A DNA stretch of 63,923 bases, filler included, from an uncultured bacterium (GTDB lineage: Bacteria > Hinthialibacterota > Hinthialibacteria > Hinthialibacterales > Hinthialibacteraceae): the NCBI GenBank assembly GCA_964449065.1. It is 3 parts of 3 records of this genome, joined end to end, with 100 filler letters (N's around TTAATTAATTAA, not from the genome) between each part and the next. Parts side by side here need not be neighbours in the genome. Positions count along the whole stretch, not along the records: positions 1 to 25,370 come from CAYVAZ010000024.1; 2 more parts are not named here. One strand, given 5' to 3'. Numbering within the stretch: position 1 is the first letter of the stretch; each line of letters opens with the position of its first letter. The translations under genes were made by a program, and so were the position numbers. Below are positions 1 to 25,161 of this stretch, piece by piece. The notes below the pieces were generated by a model. It saw only the letters and a program-made list of their open reading frames with translations. It had not been told where the DNA came from and ran no database searches.

Positions 1-69
1 CTTAATCTTGATCCTTTTCAGAACATCCGGATTCTCACACCCAAACAGTACCTCACTGATTTTTTGTAA
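1..69 (+). CDS. 3' end of probable PIN-domain (PIN_3-like) toxin, truncated by window edge
   Basis: Frame 1 reads LNLDPFQNIRILTPKQYLTDFL*, resembling the LxxFxxIxILTPxxF/YL tail of PIN-family toxins; the stop overlaps the MITE end. Confidence 0.5.
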   Translation, partial: LNLDPFQNIRILTPKQYLTDFL

Positions 70-239
70 TAGGTCAGCCGCTTGAAGAGAAATTCCCCTC
101 CCAAAGGTGGGAGGGGCTAGGGGAGGGTTTGAAGCACTGAGCGTTTAACCCCCACCTAGCCTCCCCCATTGCATTGGGGGAGGAATAAGAAAATCGATTC
201 GATTTTTTGAATATGCACTTCATATCGCTGACCTGTTAC
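66..239 (+). mobile_element. MITE family A (GTAA...TTAC ends, ~175 bp) with internal GC hairpins
   Basis: TIR GTAATAGGTCAG / CTGACCTGTTAC; near-identical copy at 44475-44650 and diverged inverted copy at 10561-10747; flanks gatttttt/gatgtttt resemble a TSD. Confidence 0.8.
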
Positions 240-343
240 CGATGTTTTAATGTGAAAGAGGTGGATCGTTGTTTTTTATGGGAAAGAGGTATAATCCGCA
301 CGCTGAATTTATCGAATATGAATAAAAGGCAGGATACACGGTA

Positions 344-694
344 ATGTTTATAACTCCCATTTTGCTGTTAGTTGTTTCAAATATTTTTATGACGTATGCG
401 TGGTATGGTCATTTGAAAGATTTTCGGACACAGCATATTGCCTTGGTGATTGTGTTGAGTTGGGGAATTGCGTTTTTTGAGTATTGTTTTCAAGTTCCTG
501 CAAACCGGATCGGATCGGCTCATTTTTCGTTGGTGCAGTTGAAAGTTTTGCAAGAAATTATCACCATGACGGTGTTTGGATTGTTTTGTGTTTTTTATAT
601 GAAAGAAAATTTGAGCAAAGATTTTGTTTGGGCGGGGCTGTGTTTGGTGGGAGCTGCGTATTTTATGTTTCGGAATGTACCGGAGTTGAAATAA
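344..694 (+). CDS. DMT family membrane protein (DUF486-like)
   Basis: SNIFMTYAWYGHLK, SWGIAFFEY, QVPANRIG and QLKVLQEIIT motifs; four hydrophobic segments. Confidence 0.85.
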   Translation: MFITPILLLVVSNIFMTYAWYGHLKDFRTQHIALVIVLSWGIAFFEYCFQVPANRIGSAHFSLVQLKVLQEIITMTVFGLFCVFYMKENLSKDFVWAGLCLVGAAYFMFRNVPELK

Positions 695-714
695 CGGGTA
701 AATTTTTAGACTTG

Positions 715-941
715 TCAAAAAAAATGTGGGTGAATTTTGGTTCGGGCAAGTGTCCAAGTGTATGATATAACGCCACTTCCAAACTTCGGAAGGTGCGAAA
801 TCCGTATGCTTTTCTGGTGGTGACTTTTGCTTTGTTGTTTAACCCTTCCACAATGCCCGATGAAAATTCCTTTTTCGCCTGAAACCAATTCAAAATTAAT
901 TCGCGATGACGCCCGCAACATCTTCGCCACTTTCTTCATCG
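715..941 (-). pseudogene. ISL3-family transposase C-terminal remnant (frameshifted, 5'-truncated)
   Basis: PMKKVAKMLR, then frameshift to NWFQAKKEFSSGIVEGLNNKAKVTTRKAYGFRT; homology stops at the repeat starting at 942. Confidence 0.85.
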
Positions 942-1130
942 GACGGGTCACAAGGCGAAGGCCGTTCGTCCCCCCTGCTGTTCAGGCAAATCGCCCGCTC
1001 ACATCCAACCATCTTGATCCAACCCTCTTGCCAAAAATCCCAACAGCGGTCAACTCGAACAACCCGGGGACGGCAAGTCGTTCTCTCTCTCTTCATCAAA
1101 GGCAGACTTCGCTTGCCTTTGCCGCCCGTC
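942..1130. repeat. Module-delimiting repeat, copy 1 (full length)
   Basis: GACGGG...CCCGTC ends; closely matches 4901-5103 and 5816-5999 in the same orientation. Confidence 0.9.
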
Positions 1131-1168
1131 TATTAATGGGCGCAAAAAGACCGTGCCCATACAACTGA

Positions 1169-1306
1169 CTGTCAGAATTAGGATAACCAGGATAAAAGAA
1201 TGAACAGGATTTTTACCGCAAGAGAATCAATCCTGTGGAAAGCCATAGATTTTGATGAATGTTATCCTGAGCATCCCGCCAATCCTGGGCATTCTGATTC
1301 AGACAA
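1169..1306. mobile_element. MITE-like element with AGGAT/ATCCT internal repeats
   Basis: Imperfect TIR CTGTCAGAATTAGGAT / ATTCTGATTCAGACAA; flanked by ATGGGC...CCCAT REP-like hairpins. Confidence 0.5.
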
Positions 1307-1420
1307 TGAATAGTAAACGCAGGATGGGCAAAGCGGTATCATACCCATCGGGATTATACAATTATTGGGCACACCATGCACATATTCCCCACGATTAAAC
1401 GTGGATTTTATTATGGAAAA

Positions 1421-1436
1421 TGTGTATAATATAGAT
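1421..1436 (+). promoter_or_regulatory. -10 box of Fic TA operon (leaderless configuration)
   Basis: TGTG-TATAAT ends 6 nt before ATG 1437; no SD. Confidence 0.55.
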
Positions 1437-1652
1437 ATGAAAAATAATCAAAAAACTCACACACCACAGAAAACCGCCAAAGAAAGACTGATGGAGGGCA
1501 TTCACCTTCATGAGATCGAAGGCAATCCGTTAACTTCGGAAGAAGTTGAATTGCTTTTACGATTTGAGCATGAAAATTGGCCCTATGAAAAGCGGATTGA
1601 ATATATCCGCAATACCGCACTGAATGAATTGGTGCAGTCAACAGAAGAATGA
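1437..1652 (+). CDS. VbhA-like antitoxin of Fic TA module
   Basis: 71 aa; IHLHEIEGNPL resembles the inhibitory xxxEG motif; ATGA overlap with the Fic gene. Confidence 0.7.
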   Translation: MKNNQKTHTPQKTAKERLMEGIHLHEIEGNPLTSEEVELLLRFEHENWPYEKRIEYIRNTALNELVQSTEE

Positions 1653-2227
1653 GTGATAACCAATATTGTTACCCACCTGAATATACCGTCCTAAAAAACA
1701 AATTGGATATCCGCGACGCCGAACTACTGGATAAAGTGGAACGGAAAATCGTTTCGATTCGGATTGAACAGGGCCCGCCGCATGGTGATTTTGACCTCAA
1801 TCATCTTAAAGCGATTCACCTACATTTGTTTCAGGATATTTATGCGTGGGCGGGTGAAATCCGCACGGTTGAAATCTCCAAAGATGGACATCAATTCCAG
1901 TTGATGAAGTTTATCGAAACCGGTATGGCAGATGTTCACCGCCGTATCGTAGAAAATCATTATCTTCAAGAGTTACATCCTGCCGAATTCGCCCAAAAAG
2001 CCGGTGAGATCATCGGCGATCTTAATTACGTTCATCCCTTTCGTGAAGGCAACGGCAGAACGCAATTGCAATATTTAGATCAACTTGCAGAACAAGCCGG
2101 GTATAAACTGGAGGTAATTCGAATTCAGCCCGCCCATTGGCTGCAAGCATCCCGTGAAGCCCATAACAATGATTACAGGCTGATGATTCATTGTATTGAA
2201 CACGCAATTGCAAAGGAGCAAAAATGA
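1649..2227 (+). CDS. Fic/DOC family toxin
   Basis: HPFREGNGRTQ motif, IHxxLFQDIYxWAG, N-terminal VLKNKL. Confidence 0.92.
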   Translation: MSDNQYCYPPEYTVLKNKLDIRDAELLDKVERKIVSIRIEQGPPHGDFDLNHLKAIHLHLFQDIYAWAGEIRTVEISKDGHQFQLMKFIETGMADVHRRIVENHYLQELHPAEFAQKAGEIIGDLNYVHPFREGNGRTQLQYLDQLAEQAGYKLEVIRIQPAHWLQASREAHNNDYRLMIHCIEHAIAKEQK

Positions 2228-2264
2228 TGGGCACCAAACGGGCGTGCCCATCCTACGGACTGTG

Positions 2265-2329
2265 GACGGTTGACAAGTCGTTCTCTCTCTTCATCAAAGG
2301 CAGATTTCGCTTGCCTTTGCCGCCTGTAC
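2265..2329. repeat. Module-delimiting repeat, copy 2 (internally deleted)
   Basis: Left end GACGGTTGACAAG joined through CAAG microhomology to the right half TCGTTCTCTCTCTTCATCAAAGGCAG...GCCGCCTGTA. Confidence 0.8.
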
Positions 2330-2464
2330 CATCAATTTCAAAAGAAAAGCAATATTGAAGGTAAGGATTCAAGTTTCAAGTTCGTATAGCGTTATCCACC
2401 ACGTTTTTCACTCTTCAATTAAAATCGGCAATTTCAAGCTTAATTAGATATTTCCCTTACATAA

Positions 2465-2492
2465 TATTGATAATGATATATCATTATCAATA
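2465..2492. promoter_or_regulatory. Perfect 28-bp palindrome, Fur-family (Fur/Zur)-type operator
   Basis: TATTGATAATGATA|TATCATTATCAATA contains GATAATGAT...ATCATTATC half sites, ~50 bp upstream of the oxidoreductase ORF. Confidence 0.7.
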
Positions 2493-2542
2493 ATGTTGCA
2501 ATGGGTATATGATTTATCCCAAAGGAGGCAACAACATACAAA

Positions 2543-3703
2543 ATGAAAGGGAATCATGGAATGAATGCATCGCTTAAACGTAAAAAAATGAAAACGTTAC
2601 CACGACTCTCTCCATTCTCTGTACTGATTGTTGGTGCAGGCGCATCAGGCATTGGAATGGGGATCGTTTTCGAGAAATGTGGAATAAAAGATTACGTAAT
2701 TCTTGAACGCAACAAGATCGGTTCTTCCTTTGTCGCCTGGCCTCGCTACACACGGTTCATCTCGCCGTCGTTCTGCGGTAATTTTTTTAACGCTGTTGAC
2801 TTGAACGCCGTATCTCCTGATACTTCGCCCGCCTTCACCCTCATGACAGAACACCCATACGGCAATGAATACGAAAAATACCTACAGCAGGCTGCAAAAC
2901 ATTTCACACTCAAAGTGCGAAAACAGACTTCGGTGCTTTCAATTAAAAAACAAGGCGATGTATTCGAAATTGAAACCAACAAAGCCATTTTCACAAGTCG
3001 ATTTGTGATATGGGCTGGTGGTGAATTTTCGAATCCAGCAAACCAACCATTCGATGGTGCGGAATATTGTGTCCACTCTTCTATCATAGAGGATTTTCCC
3101 GATAACAAGTACACGATCATCGGAGGTTTCGAAAGCGGCATGGAGCTTGCCGCACATCTCCTCTCGAACGGCAAATCAGTAACGATCATCGATGCCGGCG
3201 AACCGTGGGAAGTCAATGGCAGCGACTCCAGCATCTCACTGGCACCCTCAACCCGTGACCGACTGAGACCTTTCATCGGTACACCGGACTTGCGCTTTAT
3301 CGGAAAGTCTCGTGTTATCAAAGTCGAGTTTAAAGAAAACGGTTACAAAATCATCTTTGAAAACAAAAAACATATCCTAAGCCCCACCCGCCCCATCCTC
3401 GCGACGGGATTCCACCCACTTTCTCCCGTCGTACAGGAACTCTTTATGCAAGAAGAAGATGGAGTCGCCCTTACGGAAGACGACGAGTCAACCGTAACAC
3501 CAGGACTTTTTCTTGTTGGTCCGCGTGTGCGTCATGTAGGAGGAAATTTCTGTTTCATTTACAAGTTCCGACAGCGGCTCCCAATTGTTGCAGAGATAAT
3601 TGCAGATCGATTGAACCTGAGTACAGAAGGACTAGACGAGTACAAGAAAGCCAACATGTACCTCAAAGATTTGTCTTGCTGTAACAACGAGTGCACCTGT
3701 TAA
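2543..3703 (+). CDS. NAD(P)/FAD-dependent oxidoreductase (flavin monooxygenase-like) with Cys-rich tail; start uncertain
   Basis: IVGAGASG, IGGFESG, ILATGF, ESTVTPGLFLVG, FCFIYKFRQR; C-terminal DLSCCNNECTC. Confidence 0.85.
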   Translation: MKGNHGMNASLKRKKMKTLPRLSPFSVLIVGAGASGIGMGIVFEKCGIKDYVILERNKIGSSFVAWPRYTRFISPSFCGNFFNAVDLNAVSPDTSPAFTLMTEHPYGNEYEKYLQQAAKHFTLKVRKQTSVLSIKKQGDVFEIETNKAIFTSRFVIWAGGEFSNPANQPFDGAEYCVHSSIIEDFPDNKYTIIGGFESGMELAAHLLSNGKSVTIIDAGEPWEVNGSDSSISLAPSTRDRLRPFIGTPDLRFIGKSRVIKVEFKENGYKIIFENKKHILSPTRPILATGFHPLSPVVQELFMQEEDGVALTEDDESTVTPGLFLVGPRVRHVGGNFCFIYKFRQRLPIVAEIIADRLNLSTEGLDEYKKANMYLKDLSCCNNECTC

Positions 3704-3852
3704 TTATAAAAATATAAATTCAATATCATGAAAGTAAAATCATTGATTAAAAAAACATTGTGAAGCCTGCAGAGTATTCAAGCGCGGTAAATATGTATAC
3801 ATCGTCAGCAAACTGAATCCGCGCTGCAAGCAAAGACAAGGAGAGTCATCTC

Positions 3853-4830
3853 ATGTATTTCGGCAACAAAGTCTTTACGAACTTCGGCACAACAATTCTG
3901 CTTCTAGGTGCCATTGTTATCGGGTCACTCATAGGCTCACTCTATCCACAGGGTGGCCGCTGCCTTAGTGACTATGTAGACTTCACCATTCTTGCCCTTG
4001 TGTCGCTCCTCTTTTTCGAGGTGCGTTTCGAAGCACTTTCCAAGATTACACAAAACTTCAGGTTCCTCTCGATAGCCTGGGTCGCCAACTTTATCTTTAT
4101 ACCAACCATCGGCTTTCTCATCGCGTCCCTATTTCTATCCGGCAAGCCTCTCTTCTTAACCGGTCTTTTCATCTACTTTAGCGCGCCTTGCACAGATTGG
4201 TTTTTGGGCTTCACCAGACTTGCACACGGCAATACTTCGCTCGGGGCGGCTCTTCTGCCCATCAACTTGATTTCGCAACTTCTCTTGTATCCAATTTATC
4301 TTTCCCTCTTTGTGCACAAACAGGTCAGCGTCAATATCGCTTCCATCGGACATACGCTTCTGATTTGGTTCCTAATACCGTTCATTGGTGCGGTTCTCGT
4401 GCACATGTTGCTCAAGACAGTGCTCCACACACAAACCTTTGAAAGGCTGCTGGTACTCATTGGTAAAATCATTCCGTTTGTCATTAGTGTTCTCGTTGTC
4501 TGCATCTTCTCGGCAAATTTTGGGACCATCCTCGAACACATTGGCACTTTCCTGATCATACTTGTCGCTGTGTTTACATTCTTCGTTGTCACCTACTTTC
4601 TCGTTGAAGGAGCAGCCAAGATATTCAAACTCAATTATCCAGAGCACGTGCTTCTCGTTATGACAACCGCTGCACGCAACGCACCGATGATGCTCGGTCT
4701 TTCTGCAGCCGCACTGCCCGATCAACCTCTCATCCACGCAGCAATCGTGATTGGCATGCTTGTCGAGTTCCCCCATCTAACAGCACTGAAACATATTATG
4801 CTCAAGAGACGCTCTACAACTACTCCATAA
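3853..4830 (+). CDS. Acr3/SBF-family transporter (arsenic resistance protein-like)
   Basis: About 10 TM segments; NFIFIP, APCTDWFLGFT, LLPINL, ARNAP, MLVEFP motifs. Confidence 0.8.
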   Translation: MYFGNKVFTNFGTTILLLGAIVIGSLIGSLYPQGGRCLSDYVDFTILALVSLLFFEVRFEALSKITQNFRFLSIAWVANFIFIPTIGFLIASLFLSGKPLFLTGLFIYFSAPCTDWFLGFTRLAHGNTSLGAALLPINLISQLLLYPIYLSLFVHKQVSVNIASIGHTLLIWFLIPFIGAVLVHMLLKTVLHTQTFERLLVLIGKIIPFVISVLVVCIFSANFGTILEHIGTFLIILVAVFTFFVVTYFLVEGAAKIFKLNYPEHVLLVMTTAARNAPMMLGLSAAALPDQPLIHAAIVIGMLVEFPHLTALKHIMLKRRSTTTP

Positions 4831-4900
4831 TATAACTACTTCCATTTAATTTCCGCAAACTAATCTTAGTCCGTTTTCTCAACATTCCATAATCCATATG

Positions 4901-5103
4901 GACGGACAGATGGCAAGCACAAGGCCGTTGGTCTCCCCTTGCTGTTCAGTACAGTTCAGGCGAATCGCCCGCTCACACCCAACTTTCTTGATCCAACCAT
5001 CTTGCCAAAAATCCCACCAGCGGTCAACTCGAACTATTCGGGGGCGGCAAGTCGTTCTCTCTCTTCATCAAAGGCAGTCTTCGCTTGCGTTTGCCGCCCC
5101 GCC
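4901..5103. repeat. Module-delimiting repeat, copy 3
   Basis: Homologous to 942-1130; perfect internal stem GGGGCGGCAA...TTGCCGCCCC. Confidence 0.9.
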
Positions 5104-5104
5104 T

Positions 5105-5236
5105 AAGGTTTCCCCAGGACAAATATACAGCGGCACGCCATCCACCGCCCGCACATGGTTCATCACATTGCCCATCACACCTTTGCGGATGGGGATATTT
5201 AACGAGATTGCTTACTTGTAAGAGGGGCGGTGTCAT
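5105..5236 (-). pseudogene. 5' fragment of OppF/DppF-like peptide ABC ATPase
   Basis: MTPPLLQVSNLVKY, then with a frameshift PIRKGVMGNVMNHVRAVDGVPLYICPGETL; ends at repeat copy 3. Confidence 0.7.
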
Positions 5237-5497
5237 TTAAGGGCGGTTATTTTTGTGCGCTTCATAGTATGTGCGAAGAATGGCATTGATGCGTGTTTGA
5301 TAGCCTTTTCCTTCTTTTTTGAGCCAATCCAAAATATCGGCATCCAAACGGATATACACCCCTTGTTTTGGTTCCGGCATTTGTATTTCCGCGCTTTCCC
5401 AAAACGCAGCATCCGTCTCAGGAATGTCAGAGTAATCGATATCTTCATCCCGCAGTGCTTCAATCTCTTTCTTGCGTTTTTTTGAGATGGTTAACAT
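5237..5497 (-). CDS. brnA: BrnA-family antitoxin
   Basis: IDYSDIPE, VYIRLDADILDWLK, GYQTRINAILR. Confidence 0.9.
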   Translation of the reverse strand: MLTISKKRKKEIEALRDEDIDYSDIPETDAAFWESAEIQMPEPKQGVYIRLDADILDWLKKEGKGYQTRINAILRTYYEAHKNNRP

Positions 5498-5753
5498 AAA
5501 TATTCCTTTCTGCACGGTTTGCCCGTCTGGCGGATAGGATTCGGATCACATCGTTTCTATCCACATGAACGACAACAATGACGGCAATTCCAGCCATACT
5601 CCCTAAACTGATGAATCGTTCTTCACCATAATCAAAACGGTCATCTACACGTGTGAGAACAAACCCATTACATATTTCTTTTGCTTCCTCAAACGCCAGC
5701 CCATGCTTTTGACGATTGATCTTATTTTTCTGTTCGTCCCAATCAAATTTCAT
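5460..5753 (-). CDS. brnT: BrnT-family toxin
   Basis: MKFDWDEQKNKINRQKHGLAFEEA, DYGEERF, IRILSARRA. Confidence 0.92.
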   Translation of the reverse strand: MKFDWDEQKNKINRQKHGLAFEEAKEICNGFVLTRVDDRFDYGEERFISLGSMAGIAVIVVVHVDRNDVIRILSARRANRAERNIYVNHLKKTQERD

Positions 5754-5759
5754 ACTTTA

Positions 5760-5788
5760 AGTATATATAGATTGTATATACAATGCAA
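5760..5788 (-). promoter_or_regulatory. sigma70 promoter with palindromic operator for brnTA (leaderless)
   Basis: TTGCAT-N17-TATACT, 6 nt before ATG; palindrome ATTGTATATACAAT in the spacer. Confidence 0.7.
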
Positions 5789-5815
5789 TACTACTTTTAT
5801 AGGGATACAAACACA

Positions 5816-5999
5816 GACGGGTCACAAGGGCAAGGCTGTTCGTTTCCCCTTGCTGTTCAGTACAGTTCAGGCGAATCGCCCGCTCACATTCAACTATCTT
5901 GCCAAAAATCCCACCGGCGGTCAACTCGAACAATTCGGGGGCGGCAAGTCGTTCTCTCTCTTCATCAAAGGCAGACTTCGCTTGCCTTTGCCGCCCGTC
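5816..5999. repeat. Module-delimiting repeat, copy 4
   Basis: GACGGGTCACAAGGGCAAG...CTTGCCTTTGCCGCCCGTC, ~19-bp imperfect terminal IR. Confidence 0.9.
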
Positions 6000-6040
6000 C
6001 AAACCAACTGACTTACTGAAGGAATTAGTTAATCTTGCTC

Positions 6041-6068
6041 TTGCCTATGACATCATATACGCTATCAT
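6041..6068 (+). promoter_or_regulatory. sigma70 promoter of PIN TA operon (leaderless)
   Basis: TTGCCT-N16-TATCAT, 6 nt before ATG 6075. Confidence 0.55.
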
Positions 6069-6074
6069 TTATCG

Positions 6075-6500
6075 ATGGGAGAGAACATCGTTATTGATAC
6101 GAGCGTACTGATCAGTGCGTTGATAGGAAATGAAGGACCGGGCAGGGAAATTTTGCGCCGTTGCCTGTTGGGACACTATACCCCATTAATGAGCAACACC
6201 TTATTTCATGAATATGAAGACGTTACTACGCGCAAAAATATACTTGATCTGTGTCCCCTGAAGCCTGATGAAATCAGAACACTGCTCAATGCCTTATACA
6301 GCACGTGCCGGTGGATACCCATTTACTTTTTATGGCGGCCGAACCTCAAAGATGAAGACGACAATTTTTTGATAGAACTCGCTATTGCAGGCAACAGCGG
6401 ATATATTATTACCAATGATACCAAAGACCTGCGAAATGCCGAGTTACATTTTGAAAACCTAACCATAGTAACACCCGAAGAATTTTTGAGAGGGAACTAG
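6075..6500 (+). CDS. PIN-domain toxin (PIN_3 family)
   Basis: IVIDTSVLISAL, EYEDV, WRPNLKDEDDNFLIELA, IITNDTKDL. Confidence 0.9.
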   Translation: MGENIVIDTSVLISALIGNEGPGREILRRCLLGHYTPLMSNTLFHEYEDVTTRKNILDLCPLKPDEIRTLLNALYSTCRWIPIYFLWRPNLKDEDDNFLIELAIAGNSGYIITNDTKDLRNAELHFENLTIVTPEEFLRGN

Positions 6501-6501
6501 C

Positions 6502-6723
6502 ATGGCTACGTTAACCGTGAGATTGCCGGATGATAAACACGAACGGCTCAAAGCATTGGCTGCGCATAAAAAGATCAGTGTAAACAAGCTGGTGGAAGAA
6601 CTTTCCACTCAAGCGCTGGCAGAATTTGATAGCGAAATCCGCTTTCGAGCCTTAGCGGCAAAAGGCAACCGAAAAAAAGGCTTGGCTCTGCTTGATCAGC
6701 TCGATACTCATTTTAAAGAGTAA
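6502..6723 (+). CDS. HicB-like/RHH antitoxin
   Basis: MATLTVRLPDDKHERLKALA...SVNKL; directly follows the PIN toxin. Confidence 0.85.
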   Translation: MATLTVRLPDDKHERLKALAAHKKISVNKLVEELSTQALAEFDSEIRFRALAAKGNRKKGLALLDQLDTHFKE

Positions 6724-6769
6724 CGCCAGCCATAACCGCACCCAATAAGCGAAGCATAGCGCCAACACT

Positions 6770-6817
6770 CTACCATTGTGATAGGAGTTGTTCGTACTCA
6801 TCGTGAGTCCCAATCCA
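6770..6817 (-). pseudogene. 3' tail of RelE/ParE-like toxin gene
   Basis: WIGTHDEYEQLLSQW* matches the WIG(S/T)HxEY C-terminal motif; cut off at repeat copy 5. Confidence 0.55.
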
Positions 6818-6820
6818 TCT

Positions 6821-6894
6821 GAACGGGTCACAAGCACAAGGCCGTTCGTCTCCCCCTGCTGTTCATGCGAATCGGTCGAGGCCCAGTCCATCTG
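6821..6894. repeat. Module-delimiting repeat, copy 5 (left part only)
   Basis: GAACGGGTCACAAGCACAAGGCCGTTCGTCTCCCCCTGCTGTTCA; bracketed by TCCATCTG at 6814-6821 and 6887-6894. Confidence 0.8.
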
Positions 6895-6976: not shown

Positions 6977-7603
6977 TTATCCATCGCAGGTGCCCGAGCA
7001 GCCGAAATCGGCTAATGATATACCGGGATATTGCGAGGTGGTAAAGGGATAACCTTTGCCGCCACCGCCATCGGCGAGGGGACGGTAGATGGTGCCTTTG
7101 CTGTTGAGTCCGTTTGACATGTCGTAGGGCAGGAAAAACTCCTGGCCGGATGCGATGGAACCGTCTTTATCGGGGCCGACGGATTTGGTGAAAAAGGCGG
7201 CATTTTTATGCCGGGCATAATATTTGGGTGCGGCAATCCCGATTCTCCCCGCTCCTTCGACGGCAGAAGGTTCAACGTGGTATTGTCCACAAAACCATTG
7301 CCAGGTTTGGGTTTCGTGTTCGGTTTGAAAGGGATCGGACATGCTGGTGCTTAAATAGGCGATGGGGCTGGTGATGAATTTGTGCTGGGCCTTGCAGCGG
7401 TCGGCGTGAGGCGGCCAAGCGTTGTTGTCTAGTTTGTACATTAAATAGGCTTCGTTGAGGGAGCGCATTTCGGCTTCCGCTTTGGCGATCTTGGCCTTGG
7501 TTTGGGCGTTTAAAAAGTTGGGTACAGCAATGGCGGCTAGAATCCCGATGATGGCGACGACAATGAGCAACTCAATTAACGTAAAGGCTGTTTTCATTTG
7601 CAC
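6977..7603 (-). CDS. Prepilin-type N-terminal cleavage/methylation domain protein
   Basis: AFTLIELLIVVAIIGILAAIAVPNF; ITSPIAY, SVGPD, YDMSNGLNSKG. Confidence 0.88.
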   Translation of the reverse strand: MQMKTAFTLIELLIVVAIIGILAAIAVPNFLNAQTKAKIAKAEAEMRSLNEAYLMYKLDNNAWPPHADRCKAQHKFITSPIAYLSTSMSDPFQTEHETQTWQWFCGQYHVEPSAVEGAGRIGIAAPKYYARHKNAAFFTKSVGPDKDGSIASGQEFFLPYDMSNGLNSKGTIYRPLADGGGGKGYPFTTSQYPGISLADFGCSGTCDG

Positions 7604-10560: not shown

Positions 10561-10747
10561 GCAACAGGTCAGCGGCGTGAAGTAAAAAATCAAAAAGAGG
10601 TTCCTTCTTCTCCCCCCAATGCAATGGGGGAGGTTAGGAGGGGGGTAAAAAGGGGTAAGACACTCTCTTACGAAACCGGATCAACCCTCCCCTAACCCCT
10701 CCCAGGCCTGGGAGGGGGAATCTCTCTTCAAACGGCTGACCAATTAC
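10561..10747 (-). mobile_element. MITE family A, diverged inverted copy
   Basis: GCAACAGGTCAG...CTGACCAATTAC; flanks gactggg/gaccggg resemble a TSD. Confidence 0.7.
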
Positions 10748-18052: not shown

Positions 18053-20803
18053 ATGAGCAAGATATTCAGCATAGCCTGGTATGAAGCGAAAATGAGCAGC
18101 CGCAGCTGGCGGTTTTGGCTGCTGCTCACGTTGATCGCGGGCGTTTCGTGGTTTGCGCGGCAAGACTTTTTGGAAGTGGTGCGCGGCGGAATGTTTGTGC
18201 ATACAGCCTACAGTTTCGCGCACCCCAGTTTCTGGCTCATGTTCAGTGTCATCATGCTGGGGGCGGCCTCGTTGGGGCTTGATATCTGCGGGCGGCTGCG
18301 CAACAACGGGATGGATAAGATTATGTTCCCCCTGCCGTTTTCTTCCATGCAGCTGATGTGGGGACGCTTTTTGGGTGTGCTGTTTATTATGCTCCCCCTC
18401 AGCGCGCTGGGTGTGTTTTCGCTGGCGGTTTGGCATTACTTTTACGGACATGGATTTGTGATCTGGCAGCCGTTTGTGTATGCCTATTTGTATTTAATTT
18501 TGCCCTGCATGATTCCGGTAATTGTAACCGCCATTACCATGCGGACATTTTTTAAGCACGATTTCGCGGCGTTGCTGTTTGGTGCGGTTTTTATGCTTGC
18601 CGTCATGATCGTCGGGCAAAAAACCGGTGTGATTTTGGATGTACCGGAAGTGATGAACCGGCTGCGCGATTCCTCTCCAACGATTGGGGTGCGGCTGAAC
18701 TGGCGCAATCATACCGGCGCGTTTTGGGTGCACGGTTTGTACAGTTTGTTTGTGCTGTATCTGGGACCGCTTTATTTGCGGCGGCAGCAAATCCAAACGT
18801 GGGGCGCGGCGGCAGGCGACCGTTTCGGATTCTCGCGCCTCTTGGGGCATCTCTCGCGCTTTCGGATTGACCGCAATTTAGAGATGTCGTACCGGATTGC
18901 TTTAATCGTGCTGATTGGTGTGTGCACGGTCGGCGGCATTCGCGCGGGTCAGCATTACCAGGACATTTTGGAACAGGAACGGTTGGAAGAATCCTACCAA
19001 CGCATGATTGTGACGGAAACCAACCTCAATATGCCGGTCGATATCGCTTCCTATAAGATTGATATGTTGCCGTTGAAGAAAAACCGCCTGCCGCTTCATG
19101 CCGCGATGCAGTTCGAATTGAAAGGCGATACCGAACAACTGGTCTTTGAATTGGAACCCACATACGAATTGGACAGCGTGGCGTTGAACGGACAAAAGGT
19201 GCCGTTTGAGCGCCGGCTCGACCGGATTTATATTCAATCCCCATCCACAATCCAACCCGAAGATCAAGTGGAAGTGTCGTTTGCCTATGCTTGGAATGAG
19301 CCGCGGATCTCGCATGAATACGGCGTTCTGTTGGGGCGGTGGTATCCCGTGCCGGCGCGGCGGATTCAGGCCAGCGACAATAATCCCTATCTGGACCGCG
19401 AGCAAGATTTGTTTGACGCCGCCGTTACGGTTCATCTTGCCCATGGGCAAAACAGCGTGTTTGCCGGTGAGTTGATTCGGGATGAAGAGACGAACGGCGG
19501 CCGTGTGGAAGAATGGCGGACGAAGTATCCGGTCAATCATCTCGAACTGCGTTGGGGGTTGTACGACAAAGTGACAGTAGCGCGCGATTATTACCGCATC
19601 CACTTTTACCATCTCCCCTATCACGCCTACGAATCGCAAGTGATGCTGGAAGAAGTTCAGGATCAAGAAGAGTATGTGACGGAACGGTTGGGTGTGTTTC
19701 CGTTTGAAGATTTGGTGTTGGTGGAAACCCCCTACGACGAAGATGAATTCACCCATAACCGGTGGTGGAATCAACACGCGACTCCGGAAAACCAGCAGCC
19801 GCGGATGCCGGGGATGATCCGGATGCCGGAAGAGTTGCTTTCCTACATGCACGAAGGGATTTGGAGTTTGGAACGTTTGGATACAGACCCGCGCGAAGTC
19901 CCGTTTTATCAGATGCTGCGTTCAACCGTGTATACCGTGCGGGATTCATTTTATAAAAACTACATCAAAGCCTATTTTGAAGACGCGTTTCATCCGACCG
20001 GGGAACTGGCCTTTTGGCTGGAAGAATATTTGTACAGTTACGCGGCAAAGCTGCTGGAACAAAACCGGTGGGTGCAAAAGCAGGGATTGAATTTCAATAT
20101 CGGGACATCGAAAGACAAACCGGTGCACGCCGCGAAAGAAAAATCACTGGTGGAATTGCACCGTGAAGGTGATTATAAAGAATTGGAACGCGTTCGCGGC
20201 GAAGGGACGCTGCGGATGATTCACCACCTGCTGGGAGATGACGAGTGGTGGGCGGTGATCAAAAATATGTTTGAAGATAACCGCTTCAAAGAAATGCCGG
20301 TGAAAGAGTTGTTTCGCCAAGTGGAAGAACGCTATGGCGAACCGCTGGATTGGTTTGTGGAGCAATGGGTGTATGGAAGCGTGCTGCCGGAGTATCAAGT
20401 GGTGCAGGCGGAAGGCAAAATTTTAGAAGAACAATCCGGCGAAGACGAGTTTCGGGTATATTACGAGGCATCCATCAAAGTCAAAAATCATGGCACCGGG
20501 CGGATGGCGGTGCCGGTTTTTATCGAGACGGAGATGGATTATATTTTCCGCGATCTGTGGCTCGATTCGCAAGACGAACAAACGTTGACGTTAACCATGC
20601 CCAGCCGCCCCTTGTTCGCCACGGTAGACCCGGAAAATTGGGTGGTGAAGACGCCCTATTATGATCCCAATTTGAAGCGCCGAATTAATTCCGAAATGAA
20701 GGTATACATCCCCGGTGATGACCGGAAAAATGTCGGCCGGGGCTTTGAAGAAAGAGGCCGGCGTGGAAGAGGAAGACGCGGCGGGTTCCGTTTTGGATTT
20801 TAG
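18053..20803 (+). CDS. ABC permease fused to M1-aminopeptidase-like domain (probably inactive)
   Basis: N-terminal IAWYEAK plus TM segments; M1-like FPFEDLVLVE, WLEE, LRMIHHLLGD, LDWFVEQWVYG, VDPEN; no HEXXH seen. Confidence 0.75.
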   Translation: MSKIFSIAWYEAKMSSRSWRFWLLLTLIAGVSWFARQDFLEVVRGGMFVHTAYSFAHPSFWLMFSVIMLGAASLGLDICGRLRNNGMDKIMFPLPFSSMQLMWGRFLGVLFIMLPLSALGVFSLAVWHYFYGHGFVIWQPFVYAYLYLILPCMIPVIVTAITMRTFFKHDFAALLFGAVFMLAVMIVGQKTGVILDVPEVMNRLRDSSPTIGVRLNWRNHTGAFWVHGLYSLFVLYLGPLYLRRQQIQTWGAAAGDRFGFSRLLGHLSRFRIDRNLEMSYRIALIVLIGVCTVGGIRAGQHYQDILEQERLEESYQRMIVTETNLNMPVDIASYKIDMLPLKKNRLPLHAAMQFELKGDTEQLVFELEPTYELDSVALNGQKVPFERRLDRIYIQSPSTIQPEDQVEVSFAYAWNEPRISHEYGVLLGRWYPVPARRIQASDNNPYLDREQDLFDAAVTVHLAHGQNSVFAGELIRDEETNGGRVEEWRTKYPVNHLELRWGLYDKVTVARDYYRIHFYHLPYHAYESQVMLEEVQDQEEYVTERLGVFPFEDLVLVETPYDEDEFTHNRWWNQHATPENQQPRMPGMIRMPEELLSYMHEGIWSLERLDTDPREVPFYQMLRSTVYTVRDSFYKNYIKAYFEDAFHPTGELAFWLEEYLYSYAAKLLEQNRWVQKQGLNFNIGTSKDKPVHAAKEKSLVELHREGDYKELERVRGEGTLRMIHHLLGDDEWWAVIKNMFEDNRFKEMPVKELFRQVEERYGEPLDWFVEQWVYGSVLPEYQVVQAEGKILEEQSGEDEFRVYYEASIKVKNHGTGRMAVPVFIETEMDYIFRDLWLDSQDEQTLTLTMPSRPLFATVDPENWVVKTPYYDPNLKRRINSEMKVYIPGDDRKNVGRGFEERGRRGRGRRGGFRFGF

Positions 20804-20862
20804 GTTCAACGCGTTCGCGAATACCAGAAAGAGAATGCGATCTGTTGCCGAAGGTATAAATC

Positions 20863-23800
20863 ATGTTTCTATCTGAAGTGGCTGTGAAACGGCCTGTTAC
20901 AACCATGATGTTTTTCGCCGCCATTGTCCTGCTGGGCATCGTATCGGTGATGCGTTTGCCCTTGCAGATGCTGCCGGATATGTCGCCGCCGGTCGGTGGA
21001 TTGCGCGTTTTTACGTATGAAGAATACAGCGCGGAAGAATTTGAACGGAATTTTATTGAACCATTAGAGGGCATTGTTTCGCAAATCCCAAACATAAAAA
21101 ATACCCGTGTATTTAGCGATGGAGAAAACTTCGCCTTTTTCACGCTGGAATTTGAATTCGGGACCAATGTGAAATACCGCGTGGTTGAATTGCAAGACAA
21201 AGCCAATCAGTTTATGCGCGAATTTCCCCGCAACACGATGAATGTGCGCGCGTTTCAATTCGAGACCTCCCGCTTTAATGAAGAGTTTATGGAAGTGGAA
21301 ATTGTTGGACCGCGTTCAGATCCGCACGTGGAAGGGGTTGATATCGAAAAACTACGCCAGCAATTGATTAACATTGATGGGGTAGCCGAAGCGGATTTGT
21401 GGGGCGGACGCGAGCGCACGGTGGATGTGCAAATTATGCAAGACCGGCTGCGCGAGTTTGGGGTTGGGATGTTCAACGTACGCAACACGGTCGAAACCTT
21501 TGCCGGAGAACCGGTCTTTTTGGGAGAAATTGAAGAAGGGAAACAACGCTATTTTGTGCGCTTCGACGGGCAATTTAAAGATACCGGTGAGATTGAAGAT
21601 GTCATTGTAAAAGAGGAGGGCAATATCGCGATCCGGCATTTGGGAGAAGTCAACGATTATTACCGCAGCCGCCGCCAACTCCGGCGCCACAACGGGCAGC
21701 CCTCGATTAACTTGGAATTGGAAAAAGAAGCCGATGTCAATGTGCTCGAACTTTCCAACCGGACGCATGGCGTGATCGCGCAAATCAACTCGGAGTTGCC
21801 GCCTGGATATAATATCATGGTGGAACGCGATCAGGCGGATCAAATCAAAGACATGCTGTGGACTCTTTCGAAGTTGGCGATGATGGGTGTTGTGCTGTCC
21901 ATGTTTGTTCTGTATTTGTTCGTGCGCAATCTCAAAATGACGCTGATTATCTGTGTCGTCATTCCGATCTGCATCGTGGCCACATTTAACTTGATGTACT
22001 TCAGCGGGATGACGATCAACATGCTGACCCTGATGGGCCTGGCGGTAGGCGTCGGTATTTTGATCGACAGTTCGATTGTGGTGCTGGAAAATATCTTCCG
22101 GCATCATGAGCAAGGGAAAAGCGCGATGCACTCAGCAGTAGTCGGCAGCCACGAGGTGGGAATTGCCGTATTCGCTTTGACCTTAACTAACGTGGTGGTC
22201 TTTTTGCCCATCATTTTCATTGAAGGGCAAATTCGGATTATGTTCACCGAAGGGGCGCTGGCCATCATTTATCCCATGTTAATCTCGATGATTGTGGCCC
22301 TTACGCTGATCCCGATGGGCTGCTCAAAAATTCTGCAATTTTCACGAAGAAAAATGCGGGCCAAAACGCTTCCTGCACAAATCGAAGCGGGCAGTTTGGC
22401 GTTCGCCGCCCCTCCTGTCCCGGTTGGGGTTTCTCAGGCTTCTAAACTTTTAACCATGTCGAATATCAAAAAGCAGTACGGCAAAATCCTGAAATCGTGT
22501 TTGCGCCACCGGGTCCGATTGTTTTTAGCCATTGTCATGGTGTGTATGTATACCTATTTCTACAGCATGAGCCGCGTCAATCAGGATGTGCTGGAACCAC
22601 CGCCGGATCATGATTGGTTCCAAGTGTATGTCTATCTGCCGGAAGGAACCAAGCAGGATCACACCATTGAAGTCGTCAACGCGGTAGAAGATATCATTAT
22701 CGAGAATGTGCCGGAGCGGCATCATACCGGTTCGCGGATTGATGAAGATTGGGCGGTCATTTGGACGCGGTTAAAAGACGACCGGGAACGGGAACAGCCG
22801 GAAATCAAGGAAAGCCTGCGTCCGGTTTTTGAAGCCTTTGCAAGCGCGGAGGTGTCGTTTAACCGCCGCAGCCGGGGGGATAATGCCGAACCGCCCGTCG
22901 AAACGGGCCGCAGCGGGATGATTGAAATCCGCGGGCCGGAGTATGGGCAGATTCAAACCATTGCCAATACCTTTATCGAACAGGCCGAAAACGTGCCGGG
23001 CGTGCGCGATGTGCAAAGCCAAACCGAAGGCGGCGCGCTGGAAGTGAACTTTATCCTGGACCGCGAGCGCGCGGCGCACTTGCAGATCACCCCGCAATCG
23101 GTTGCACAGGCCATTCAAAGCGCGCAGCGCCAGGGAGAATCGTCCTCGATTGAAATGAAAAAAGGCGACAGCGAAATCATGATCGTGTTTTCCCAGGTGG
23201 AAGAATTGATTGATATTTCCGAACTGGATAACGCGGATGAGGGACTGAAATTTGATGAACTGCTTCGAATTCCGGTTTTTTCACCCACGGTGGGAGGGAC
23301 GATCAGTTTATCCGAATTGGGGCGGTTTGAAATTCGCCGCGGCATGGGACAGTTGCAGCGGGAAAATCAGGAACGGATCGGCAAGATCGTGTTTGAAACC
23401 GCTCCGGACGCGAACTTTAAAGAAGTCGAAACCGCCATGCAAACACTCATGGATAACTATCCTATCAAGGCGGGCTACCGCATGTCGCTTGGGGGACGCT
23501 CCCGAACGATTGATGAAAATATGCAGGCGTTTACGCAAATGATTTACCTGGCGTTTTTGCTGGTGTATATGTGTATGGCCTCGCTGTTTGAATCGTTTAG
23601 CAAGCCGTTGGTGGTGTTTCTATCGGTGCCGCTCGCGATTGTCGGTATTGTATGGATGTTTATTTTTACGAATACCCCGTTTACGGAAACGGCGGCGCTG
23701 GGTGCGTTGTTCTTGGTGGGGATATTGCCGAACAGCGCGATTTTGCTGGTGCATTATACGAGTTATCTCATCCGCAATTATAACTATCCCCGTGAACGGG

Positions 23801-25161
23801 CGATTATGCGGTCGGGTTACAACCGGCTGCGTCCCATCTTTATGACAGTGATGACAACTTGTTTGGGCATCTTGCCGCTGGCGGTTGATATTCGCGGCAG
23901 TGAAGAATGGACCCCCTTCGCGCGCTGTGTCATCGGCGGCCTTTTAAGCAGCACGGTCTTGACGCTGATTATTGTGCCGGGATTTTATTTTATCGTGGAA
24001 GATTTGATGAAGGGCATTCAGGTCGTCATGCGCTATATCAGCAGCTGGCGCTGGATCTTTGTCTTTTGGAATAAAACAAGCCGGACCGCCTACCGCCAGC
24101 GAATTACCGCTTACCGTCAAAAGCCAACGCCGGATGAGCCGCTGGAAATTGTAGTGGAGTATCTAGTCCGCATTTATCAACCGCCGTTTTTGGAGCGGAT
24201 GCTGGGTAAGATTAAACGAATTTTGTCGATGAATACCTATTCAACGGCGACCGGGTTTATCCCGCAGCCGGTAGCGGCACCATCGGCTCATGCAACGCAA
24301 GCGCGCACCAAAGCGCTGGACGGCATACACGTGAATTTAGGGCCGGGGATTTATGGTCTCTTGGGGCCGAACGGCGCGGGGAAAACCACGTTGCTGCGTC
24401 TCTTAGCGGGAATAGATCAACCCACCCGCGGGTTTTTATCAGTATGCGGATACGACATGAAGACGAACGCGCGGGATATCCAAAAGCTGATCGGATATCT
24501 GCCGCAAGAGTTCGGCGTGTACACTCATTTATCCGCGGAAAAGTATTTGGATTACTTTGCGCTGATGAAGGGAATCAAAACCACGGCCGAACGCAAAAAC
24601 GCTGTGGATGCCGCGCTGGAGATGGTGAATTTGAACGAACAGCGGCATACGCCGGTCGGGCAGTTTTCAGGCGGGATGAAACGGCGCATCGGTTTGGCGC
24701 AAATCTTTGTGAAACCGCCGAAGGTGTTGATTGTGGATGAACCAACAGTTGGGCTGGATCCGATTGAGCGGGTACGCTTTCGCAATTTGCTGGTCAAATT
24801 AAGCCAAGACCGGATTGTGATTTTATCCACCCACATTGTGGATGATGTGGCGCATACCTGCAAAAACGTCGGCGTGATGAACAAAGGACGGCTGCTGTTT
24901 AACGGCAGTACATCCAACTTTGTAGAAACGGTGCAAGGCAAAGTGTGGCAAATGACTGTACCTATTGAAATGACACAAGGCGTGAATCAAGATGAATGGC
25001 GCGCGTTTCGTAAGACCTATCAAATCGTGGGACAGCATCATACCGCGGACGGCATTCATTTGCGGGTGGTTGCCGATGATGCGCCGCGGCCGGATGCGGT
25101 GAACGCGCAGCCGACGCTGGAAGACGCTTATATCTATCATACACATGTAAAAGCACAGTAA
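20863..25161 (+). CDS. RND permease fused to C-terminal ABC ATPase
   Basis: RND motifs LIDSSIVVLENI and RLRPIFMT, then in the same frame GPNGAGKT, FSGGM, IVDEPT, STH, PTLEDAY. Confidence 0.9.
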   Translation: MFLSEVAVKRPVTTMMFFAAIVLLGIVSVMRLPLQMLPDMSPPVGGLRVFTYEEYSAEEFERNFIEPLEGIVSQIPNIKNTRVFSDGENFAFFTLEFEFGTNVKYRVVELQDKANQFMREFPRNTMNVRAFQFETSRFNEEFMEVEIVGPRSDPHVEGVDIEKLRQQLINIDGVAEADLWGGRERTVDVQIMQDRLREFGVGMFNVRNTVETFAGEPVFLGEIEEGKQRYFVRFDGQFKDTGEIEDVIVKEEGNIAIRHLGEVNDYYRSRRQLRRHNGQPSINLELEKEADVNVLELSNRTHGVIAQINSELPPGYNIMVERDQADQIKDMLWTLSKLAMMGVVLSMFVLYLFVRNLKMTLIICVVIPICIVATFNLMYFSGMTINMLTLMGLAVGVGILIDSSIVVLENIFRHHEQGKSAMHSAVVGSHEVGIAVFALTLTNVVVFLPIIFIEGQIRIMFTEGALAIIYPMLISMIVALTLIPMGCSKILQFSRRKMRAKTLPAQIEAGSLAFAAPPVPVGVSQASKLLTMSNIKKQYGKILKSCLRHRVRLFLAIVMVCMYTYFYSMSRVNQDVLEPPPDHDWFQVYVYLPEGTKQDHTIEVVNAVEDIIIENVPERHHTGSRIDEDWAVIWTRLKDDREREQPEIKESLRPVFEAFASAEVSFNRRSRGDNAEPPVETGRSGMIEIRGPEYGQIQTIANTFIEQAENVPGVRDVQSQTEGGALEVNFILDRERAAHLQITPQSVAQAIQSAQRQGESSSIEMKKGDSEIMIVFSQVEELIDISELDNADEGLKFDELLRIPVFSPTVGGTISLSELGRFEIRRGMGQLQRENQERIGKIVFETAPDANFKEVETAMQTLMDNYPIKAGYRMSLGGRSRTIDENMQAFTQMIYLAFLLVYMCMASLFESFSKPLVVFLSVPLAIVGIVWMFIFTNTPFTETAALGALFLVGILPNSAILLVHYTSYLIRNYNYPRERAIMRSGYNRLRPIFMTVMTTCLGILPLAVDIRGSEEWTPFARCVIGGLLSSTVLTLIIVPGFYFIVEDLMKGIQVVMRYISSWRWIFVFWNKTSRTAYRQRITAYRQKPTPDEPLEIVVEYLVRIYQPPFLERMLGKIKRILSMNTYSTATGFIPQPVAAPSAHATQARTKALDGIHVNLGPGIYGLLGPNGAGKTTLLRLLAGIDQPTRGFLSVCGYDMKTNARDIQKLIGYLPQEFGVYTHLSAEKYLDYFALMKGIKTTAERKNAVDAALEMVNLNEQRHTPVGQFSGGMKRRIGLAQIFVKPPKVLIVDEPTVGLDPIERVRFRNLLVKLSQDRIVILSTHIVDDVAHTCKNVGVMNKGRLLFNGSTSNFVETVQGKVWQMTVPIEMTQGVNQDEWRAFRKTYQIVGQHHTADGIHLRVVADDAPRPDAVNAQPTLEDAYIYHTHVKAQ

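Follow-up and report, generated by a model that had tools for sequence, protein, structure and literature searches.

What is a direct repeat of about 190 bp doing between small gene modules, and did it bring them together? The question is raised by a locus of an uncultured bacterium of the family Hinthialibacteraceae, at positions 942-6894 of the window, i.e., the whole stretch of 63,923 nucleotides that was analyzed. The window consists of three contigs joined by N spacers and comes from a 5.2-Mb genome in 515 contigs (87% complete). Contig C24 occupies positions 1-25370 in full, which makes base 1 a contig end, and no upstream DNA is readable. Below, G000 is the genome under study, G001-G019 and further G numbers are relatives, and C with a number is a contig. 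The comparison set consisted of 19 genomes of the same family, none of the same genus. The public contigs that contain the stretch come from microbial mat metagenomes, all of one study, whose samples are probably the origin of the genome.

An earlier note on this DNA described five same-orientation copies of the repeat separating four self-contained modules, and both the copies and the modules were found on C24. Its statement that the other 57 kb are free of copies stands in that the other two contigs carry none, but these 57 kb are not contiguous and belong to three contigs. Copies also lie outside the locus, as a profile search gave 59 matches on 23 of the 515 contigs (overlapping double matches counted). 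The repeat is also not undescribed in kind. It is almost certainly a doublet of REPs (repetitive extragenic palindromes) derived from the REPtron of a REP-associated tyrosine transposase (RAYT), which occurs on about 20 contigs and is dispersed in both orientations in relatives. The five copies (R1-R5) and the RAYT remnants in them are as follows:

942..1130, plus strand: R1, full mini-REPtron with left REP (guide and stem eroded), spacer with RAYT 3′ remnant, and right REP.
1028..1063, minus strand: RAYT C-terminal remnant in R1, 12 codons, VVRVDRCWDFWQ; DNA profile score 39.0 bits.
2264..2329, plus strand: R2, copy with an internal deletion that joins the left foot to the right part.
4901..5103, plus strand: R3, full mini-REPtron.
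5002-5037, minus strand: RAYT remnant in R3, IVRVDRWWDFWQ; 40.8 bits, the top site genome-wide.
5816..5999, plus strand: R4, full mini-REPtron.
5899-5934, minus strand: RAYT remnant in R4; 37.6 bits.
6821..6874 (homology to about 6874), plus strand: R5, left REP and a few spacer bases only.

The full copies R1, R3, and R4 are 88-93% identical over aligned bases, and the deletion point of R2 apparently lies at a short GCAAG-type microhomology. The repeat is built of two outward-facing copies of a ~34-base unit, each composed of GGGTGG, an 8-bp stem, and a variable loop of 5 or 8 bases. The tag is GTGG here, before a stem of 8-9 bp, and GTAG, GTAC, or GTGC in relatives. In the window, right REPs fold into hairpins; on the left, those of R1 and R4 fold no better than shuffled sequences and have lost their former guide and stem quality. 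REPs are defined as extragenic hairpins of 20-50 nt after a GTAG-type tetranucleotide (PMC8266576), and GTRG and GTGG tags are known in repeats of the GTAG superfamily (Di Nocera 2013, PMC3733652). The unit agrees with this description, being a hairpin with a GTAG-type tag that occurs in inverted dispersed doublets and in local tandem clusters, without target duplication. It also resembles the GTAG superfamily (PMC3733652) in its 6-9 bp stem, degenerate GTAG tag, and heterodimers with the tags outside.

With up to 4 mismatches (≤4), 41 REP units were counted in G000 and 1 in the reversed genome. Further REP clusters lie on C51 (six elements), C354, C157, C215, C261, and C379. The relatives contain the REP on both strands, with 181 matches in G011, 154 in G009, 58 in G001, 2 in G002, and 0 in G007; stricter patterns gave 50 in G013 and 10 in G016, and 11 were found in G014 (the patterns differ). 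Reversed-pattern controls for these counts were 0, and most of the inspected copies in relatives lie between housekeeping genes. An exact-pattern scan of genome contigs returned 7 loci, 2 of them with the full unit and the other 5 chance matches. R4 had no match among 72,556 plasmids.

The earlier note had placed the responsible enzyme outside the window, naming the HUH type among the candidates, and this was borne out by RAYT genes, which encode HUH enzymes, beside the same REP in relatives. A Y1_Tnp search in four relatives gave three loci with a RAYT gene flanked on both sides by the REP. Full-length members (≥55% identity) are present in 6 of the 19 family genomes, and in these 6 the tnpA(REP) gene is flanked by the same REP. 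Three members, 58-81% identical, lie on one G009 contig, and the G003 copy is frameshifted. All six RAYTs submitted passed the NCBIfam model NF047646 (102-112 bits, cut-off 80), and the HuH and Y-x-x-x-NP motifs are conserved; the latter is the signature of class 2 TnpA(Y1) (Quentin 2018, PMC6006769). Unlike these class 2 and GTAG relatives, the RAYTs described here form a tight clade of their own. The clade is narrow, with only 2 of 1.84 billion representatives below 1e-60 and the next at 5e-44. Among metagenome contigs, a scan with a single RAYT protein gave no match, and an alignment scan gave 79 distant homologues (32-41%), none of the 79 with the family REP around it. By comparison, the REP adjoins 8 of the 8 RAYTs of the clade (7 by pattern, 1 by BLAST).

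The spacer of the repeat connects it directly with this gene. In three of the five copies (R1, R3, and R4), it encodes the RAYT C-terminus on the minus strand. A tblastn search alone was not significant (E 0.26-0.39). However, when a 36-base DNA profile of eight RAYT ends was used to scan the whole genome, all six full copies of this type scored 37-41 bits and the next site 19.4. The alignment puts the relic close to the inner side of the left REP, separated by 7-40 additional bases; its strand agrees with that in four REPtrons. No RAYT relic was seen in the 155-bp spacer type of C51. The intact REP-RAYT-REP unit measures ~700 bp. Shorter derivatives occur in G014 (274 bp, with about 140 bp of the RAYT gene), in G009 (a 257-bp doublet with both ends of the RAYT gene, and eroded doublets of 200-226 bp), and in G013 (doublets of about 80 bp with a 10-bp spacer). 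Judged by sequence comparison, one family presents a near-complete deletion series of ~700, 274, 257, 190 (12 codons), and about 80 bp. The homology shows the 190-bp repeat as a non-autonomous mini-REPtron, a heterodimer of the type of bacterial interspersed mosaic elements (BIMEs) or REP doublets forming hairpins (REPINs).

An intact cognate RAYT was not found in the G000 assembly (87% complete), which yielded only the 12-codon relic. Three other Y1 proteins of G000 were considered as cognates and rejected; they are at most about 31% identical to the clade and lack the REP. Since the cognate RAYT is missing from the assembly and left REPs are eroded, the array is probably old. One of these three, an intact RAYT, is encoded at C152 11293-11943 (L046; NF047646, 186 bits) beside another GTAG-type REP with about 70 copies. 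GTAG REPs related to this type flank the Fic module of the window and precede the partial copies R2 and C354:2832.

The junctions of the repeat were compared with those of known systems. As the earlier note had held, target duplications are absent; none of 14 doublets showed one of at least 4 bp (0/14, ≥4 bp). Among 39 units, the dinucleotide at the third and fourth bases past the foot was CC 21 times, CA 6 times (CC or CA in 27), and CT 5 times; the remaining 7 had another one. In a Marinomonas TnpA(REP), changing GTAG to GTGG led to cleavage at CC, and still at CA (PMC8266576). The CC/CA junctions are a good fit to this GTGG guide rule, which would place the inferred cut site there. Neighboring elements are co-oriented in 15 of 15 pairs (C24 4, C51 5, C354 3, C157 2, and C215 1), a hand count that omits variant units of ambiguous class (C51:18011, C26, C261, C379; two-sided coin-toss probability 6e-5). 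Replication-strand bias as the cause of this co-orientation is unsupported, as the orientation of the element agrees with positive GC skew on 9 of 20 contigs (short contigs, a weak test); a preference for the lagging-strand template is a trait of IS200/IS605-like HUH elements. For 11 of 12 right and 12 of 14 left units, the most similar unit was on the same contig (ties included), with permutation p values of 0.014 for right and 0.12 for left units in an ungapped comparison with two rows out of register.

The family resembles the E. coli REPtron/BIME system (PMC3333891, PMC8266576) in its hairpins with tetranucleotide tags, arranged as inverted heterodimers around a Y1 HUH gene, in local amplification in tandem, absence of target duplication, and CC/CA junctions for a GTGG guide. 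It is unlike the E. coli BIME in that the linker is a tnpA relic and the copies are 0.7-2.6 kb apart with genes between them. For E. coli-type REPtrons, one fixed locus and no sign of the gene or unit moving are reported in PMC3333891 and PMC8266576, whereas the 8 RAYT loci found here all have different neighbors. Because neighborhoods are varied and minis were amplified, RAYT-REP units of this family may have moved as whole units; transfer and loss over genus-level distances could also produce the varied neighborhoods. Set-length doublets mobilized in trans and tandem clusters that include flanking DNA are shared with the Pseudomonas REPIN-RAYT system (PMC3116915, PMC3337134, PMC5581495). REPINs have been proposed to derive from REPs flanking an ancestral autonomous element, a matter that PMC3337134 and PMC3116915 call open. 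Unlike in those papers, the derivation steps are visible here within one family. The host role of RAYTs and the origin of REPINs are treated as open in the papers cited, and the family bears on them through its deletion series. It also supplies a defined enzyme-substrate pair with a predicted cut site (CC/CA), which makes gene arraying directly testable.

We consider it somewhat probable that the array arose by local amplification of the mini-REPtron in plastic regions rich in toxin-antitoxin (TA) genes, combined with a survival filter. By homology, the mini derives from an ancestral REP-tnpA(REP)-REP unit of ~700 bp that was shortened by loss of its central part, with both REP hairpins and the gene's last codons retained. 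A RAYT supplied in trans would bind the folded REP on single-stranded DNA and cut 3′ of a C near the foot, with CC or CA predicted for a GTGG guide. Copies would be pasted or amplified nearby, on the same strand and without target duplication, by excision-insertion or rolling-circle; single-strand cutting and joining is taken from published chemistry, together with the excision-insertion and rolling-circle models of PMC3333891. If amplification took place mainly in plastic regions rich in small accessory modules, it would leave co-oriented copies between modules. The stretches between direct 190-bp repeats would be deletion-prone, and carriers of TA pairs would resist loss, so that TA cargo would become enriched. 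Superintegron arrays are stabilized by TA pairs, and they serve as the model for this filter; by analogy, TA-bearing intervals would be retained because their loss is toxic.

The modules of the array and the features around it, listed below, were compared with this proposal.

344..694, plus strand: DMT_6 (DUF486) gene, left of the array.
666..941, minus strand: 3′ fragment of an ISL3 transposase, frameshifted and truncated exactly at the R1 foot.
1136..1349, no strand assigned: further repeats within the first interval, namely GTAG-type REPs that are eroded (1136-1172, 1319-1349) and short ones of ATCCTG type.
1365..2227, plus strand: module 1, small open reading frame (ORF; putative Fic antitoxin) and Fic protein.
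2226-2256: GTAG REP after module 1.
2462..4830, plus strand: module 2, Fur-family palindrome, flavoprotein, and transporter.
2462-2494: Fur-family palindrome (Fur or Zur) of module 2.
2543-3703, plus strand: Pyr_redox_3 flavoprotein (Pfam).
3853-4830, plus strand: SBF/Acr3-like transporter (Pfam).
5237..5753, minus strand: module 3, BrnT toxin and BrnA antitoxin.
6075..6723, plus strand: module 4, PIN_3 toxin and HicB/FitA-like ribbon-helix-helix antitoxin.
6773..6775, plus strand: right REP end joined to the window with a 1-base overlap, one public contig.
6977..7603, minus strand: N-methyl pilin-like gene, right border of the array.
66..240, no strand assigned: unrelated dispersed palindromic element used as a control, about 100-124 genome copies.

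The cargo named in the earlier note was largely recovered, i.e., Fic, Pyr_redox_3 with the SBF/Acr3-like transporter, BrnT/BrnA, and PIN_3 with its antitoxin. Its labels "VbhA-like" and "PIN tail" were given from the appearance of the sequence, as neither the 95-aa ORF before Fic nor the 22-aa tail at 1-66 had a Pfam match. Of the promoter or operator ascribed to each module, the palindrome at 2462-2494 stood; the promoter scan gave 15 sites against 10.6 ± 2.7 in shuffled sequences. The flavoprotein-transporter pair follows cobW, rpmG, and rpmB in G018; because of this order, module 2 may be a zinc-starvation operon. The DMT_6 gene of the window, used as a query, was found in 0 of the 19 family genomes and the module 2 flavoprotein in 1 of the 19, and so no empty-site comparison could be made.

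The earlier note's link between the repeat and TA modules exceeds chance, with about 6-fold enrichment beside PIN/ParE genes. Independent Pfam lists (43 PIN and 19 ParE) were used, and one false unit inside a gene was dropped. Within 500 bp (≤500 bp) of a PIN/ParE gene lay 6 of 31 elements, against 3.0% of 5000 random non-coding sites (Fisher p 3e-4) and 3 of 124 copies of the control element (6/31 vs 3/124, Fisher p 2e-3), tests in which elements of one cluster are not independent of each other. With a broader TA list that is in part circular, the figure was 23 of 31 elements, or 12 of 18 clusters. A first estimate (23/32 against 8.4%) was set aside because its seeds came largely from beside the repeat and covered only 32 of the 62 PIN/ParE genes. 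The genome is very rich in TA genes, as seen in the 43 PIN and 19 ParE Pfam matches and in a local, incomplete inventory of 266 TA-like ORFs. Some TA clusters lack the repeat, e.g., one on C359 with 8 TA-like ORFs. REPs of the GTAG family lie near TA genes in 13 of 70 cases, above random, and other REP-type families in 9/30, 6/13, 2/6, and 0/9. Among relatives the association varies: TA families were found at 4 of 10 loci of G014 and seldom in G013 or G016, in a set of 108 ORFs picked by eye out of about 240 candidates.

Several points weigh against amplification with a survival filter. Invasion by the repeat would by itself leave its TA preference unexplained (control 3/124), and the filter that may account for it is an inferred step. 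Nor are the TA modules mobile by themselves, and another agent must have brought them. Modules occur inside REP pairs on C354, and a G009 REPtron holds a passenger ORF; both observations would fit capture. The conservation of the junction bases could mean no more than that they belong to the end of the element. Over the full length, copies are 88-93% identical to each other in the window and 87-91% identical to those on other contigs; the signal of local origin is real but modest.

These points lead to the alternative in which the RAYT uses its own minis as recombination sites to capture, array, and shuffle kb-sized TA and accessory modules on single-stranded DNA, which we regard as possible but doubtful. 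A RAYT would cut the REP foot and join foreign single-stranded DNA, or excise a repeat with genes as a circle and reinsert it, and REP-directed capture of this kind must be called tentative. Similarly, we hold it unlikely, if far from negligible, that the array grew by one module and one repeat at a time, as an HUH counterpart of the integron or of adaptation in CRISPR. Five or more co-oriented clusters with mostly one module per interval, the PIN/ParE enrichment (6/31 vs 3.0% random and 3/124 control), and the modules and passenger ORF inside REP pairs suit such a process, and published in-vitro strand transfer and circle models permit it (PMC3333891). Against this, 57 of the 62 PIN/ParE genes have no copy within 500 bp, and only 5 of the 62 have one nearby. 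Module ends are uneven and hold other REP families and debris of insertion sequences (IS), and no whole window module recurs elsewhere in G000 at the DNA level among the matches listed. Relatives with an intact RAYT and 154-181 REPs have TA-like matches in only 3 of 18 chosen regions (G009 and G011), and in G018 an ordinary operon contains the flavoprotein-transporter pair. If capture holds, the family would be an integrase-free, HUH-driven analogue of the integron and would give "domesticated" transposases a concrete host function; if it fails, the locus is one more ordinary accessory hotspot rich in REPs, its fossil record being unusually clear. A literature search of titles and abstracts found nothing on REP doublets arraying TA modules, most subscription papers and supplements lying outside the search.

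The order of events bears on the same choice. R1 truncates the ISL3 gene, the reading frame of which stops making sense exactly at the R1 foot, and the intervals also contain other repeat families. In G014, an attC-bearing array with ParE, HigBA, DUF4160/DUF2442, and PIN modules (C89, L128:500-7210) contains two RAYT-relic minis of about 275 bp that abut attC half-sites. The attC sites there were read by eye, and the two intact ones were confirmed by the home-made finder described below. These arrangements suggest that RAYT-relic minis can enter attC hairpins, and the repeat looks like a later arrival at R1 and at the two G014 sites. The TA clusters that lack the repeat and the position of the flavoprotein-transporter pair behind cobW, rpmG, and rpmB in G018 point the same way. 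In G009, a triplicated doublet is split by an IS481-type element and a 133-bp-period array by ISL3, which may be a sign that the array came first and was filled later. ISL3, IS481-type, and IS5-type transposases were noted there within tandem REP arrays or between two REPs (L238, L244, L246). The modules on C354 are found both between REP pairs and within them. The capture or cassette array proposed by the earlier note held in part: the TA link is above chance, but capture of modules was not demonstrated, and the repeat appears to be a later arrival at R1.

The public contig with the join at 6774 has 1116 bases at the depth of the organism; it opens with 27 bases from the end of a right REP and runs on from 6774. 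The G000 assembly lacks this join. Its 1-base overlap is not expected from homologous recombination and thus speaks for capture; it is seen in one contig with a short side of 27 bases and could be an extra inserted copy, which speaks against it. Three events could underlie the join: module 4 was lost, the array as a whole was lost, or one more copy was inserted at 6773/6774. Because all modules have similar depth in the run, an extra copy or reordering is favored. A third run of the same mat sample contained almost nothing of the stretch, which counts as no evidence of absence. Repeats are a frequent source of joins in which one side is shorter than 30 bases, and the 6774 join is only a hint.

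A RAYT-independent build-up, in which old repeats served as homology anchors for RecA-type recombination or transformation, is improbable. It accords with the lack of an intact cognate RAYT in the assembly, with copies that are long enough and 88-93% alike, and with two C51 intervals that open with the same 127 bp (89%) after the repeat. It does not account for the first copies, and both the R1/ISL3 junction and the 6774 join lie at a REP foot and not in shared sequence. A second array, at C51 13700-19800 (L006:5700-11800), consists of six co-oriented 155-bp doublets with a different spacer that separate Phd/ParE, DUF2283, ParE, PIN, HicAB, and TumE/HVO_A0114 genes. The same spacer type also ends contigs C444 and C164.

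It is very improbable that the repeat is an att site of a tyrosine or serine recombinase or the end of a DDE-type MITE (miniature transposable element with inverted repeats): a 19-bp imperfect terminal inverted repeat and cassette-like spacing would suit this, but the spacer is RAYT coding DNA, target duplications are absent, no integron integrase was found, none of the five tyrosine recombinases lies near the unit, and the contig has no attC-like site. These five recombinases of G000 are XerC-like or phage-type. A new att site was rejected because folding of the repeat as a whole does not surpass that of shuffled sequences (z -1.8 and -0.7), and a DDE-type MITE because the inverted ends occur without duplications and the partner is an HUH enzyme. 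The integrase IntI (TIGR02249) was not found in G000 or G014, and 1 of 40 relatives was above the cut-off. The home-made attC finder, of partial sensitivity, returned 28 rows in G000 and none on C24; as a control, it detected 3 sites next to the integrase of G019 and, in G014, 2 of the roughly 4 read by eye.

The earlier note's view that the repeat is neither attC, dif, nor CRISPR is confirmed. CRISPR arrays have repeats of 24-48 bp with short regular spacers, and pdif modules have 28-bp XerC/D sites in alternating orientation. The repeats here are 190 bp with gene-bearing intervals of 0.7-2.6 kb, a contrast with CRISPR drawn from anatomy, no search for cas genes having been made, and the three weak miRNA matches in Rfam do not fall on the repeat. 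The pdif modules were set aside on anatomy and the RAYT relic, no dif search having been made. Co-oriented repeats, small self-contained cargo, and many TA pairs are shared with integron arrays, with clusters of attC sites lacking integron integrases (CALINs), and with pdif modules. Unlike integrons, CALINs, and pdif modules, the array has no IntI, no attC at the repeat, by its anatomy no 28-bp dif site, and uneven module ends, and its enzyme is an HUH transposase.

A few further sites were noted. The control palindromic element also occurs at 10563-10747, and its copies often stand at contig ends. The sequence at 6762-6818, before R5, also matches G017 (L137:5491-5527) and a contig of another organism; it is possibly a relic of another element. 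One convincing lone attC-like site lies at C344 2533-2622, near a TA-like ORF, in G000, where no integrase was found. A complete integron, with IntI over the cut-off and three attC sites, is located beside a tRNA-like gene at G019:C28 about 20500-23900 (L151/L154). Within the REP pair of the REPtron at G009:C8 (L130:7365-8870) lies a 196-aa ORF of no Pfam family, a possible passenger gene. At G011:C18 (L134:8400-11310), outward-facing REPs surround an AAA_21/DUF3696 ATPase and its 308-aa partner beside a RAYT, and these two genes are a possible defence pair.

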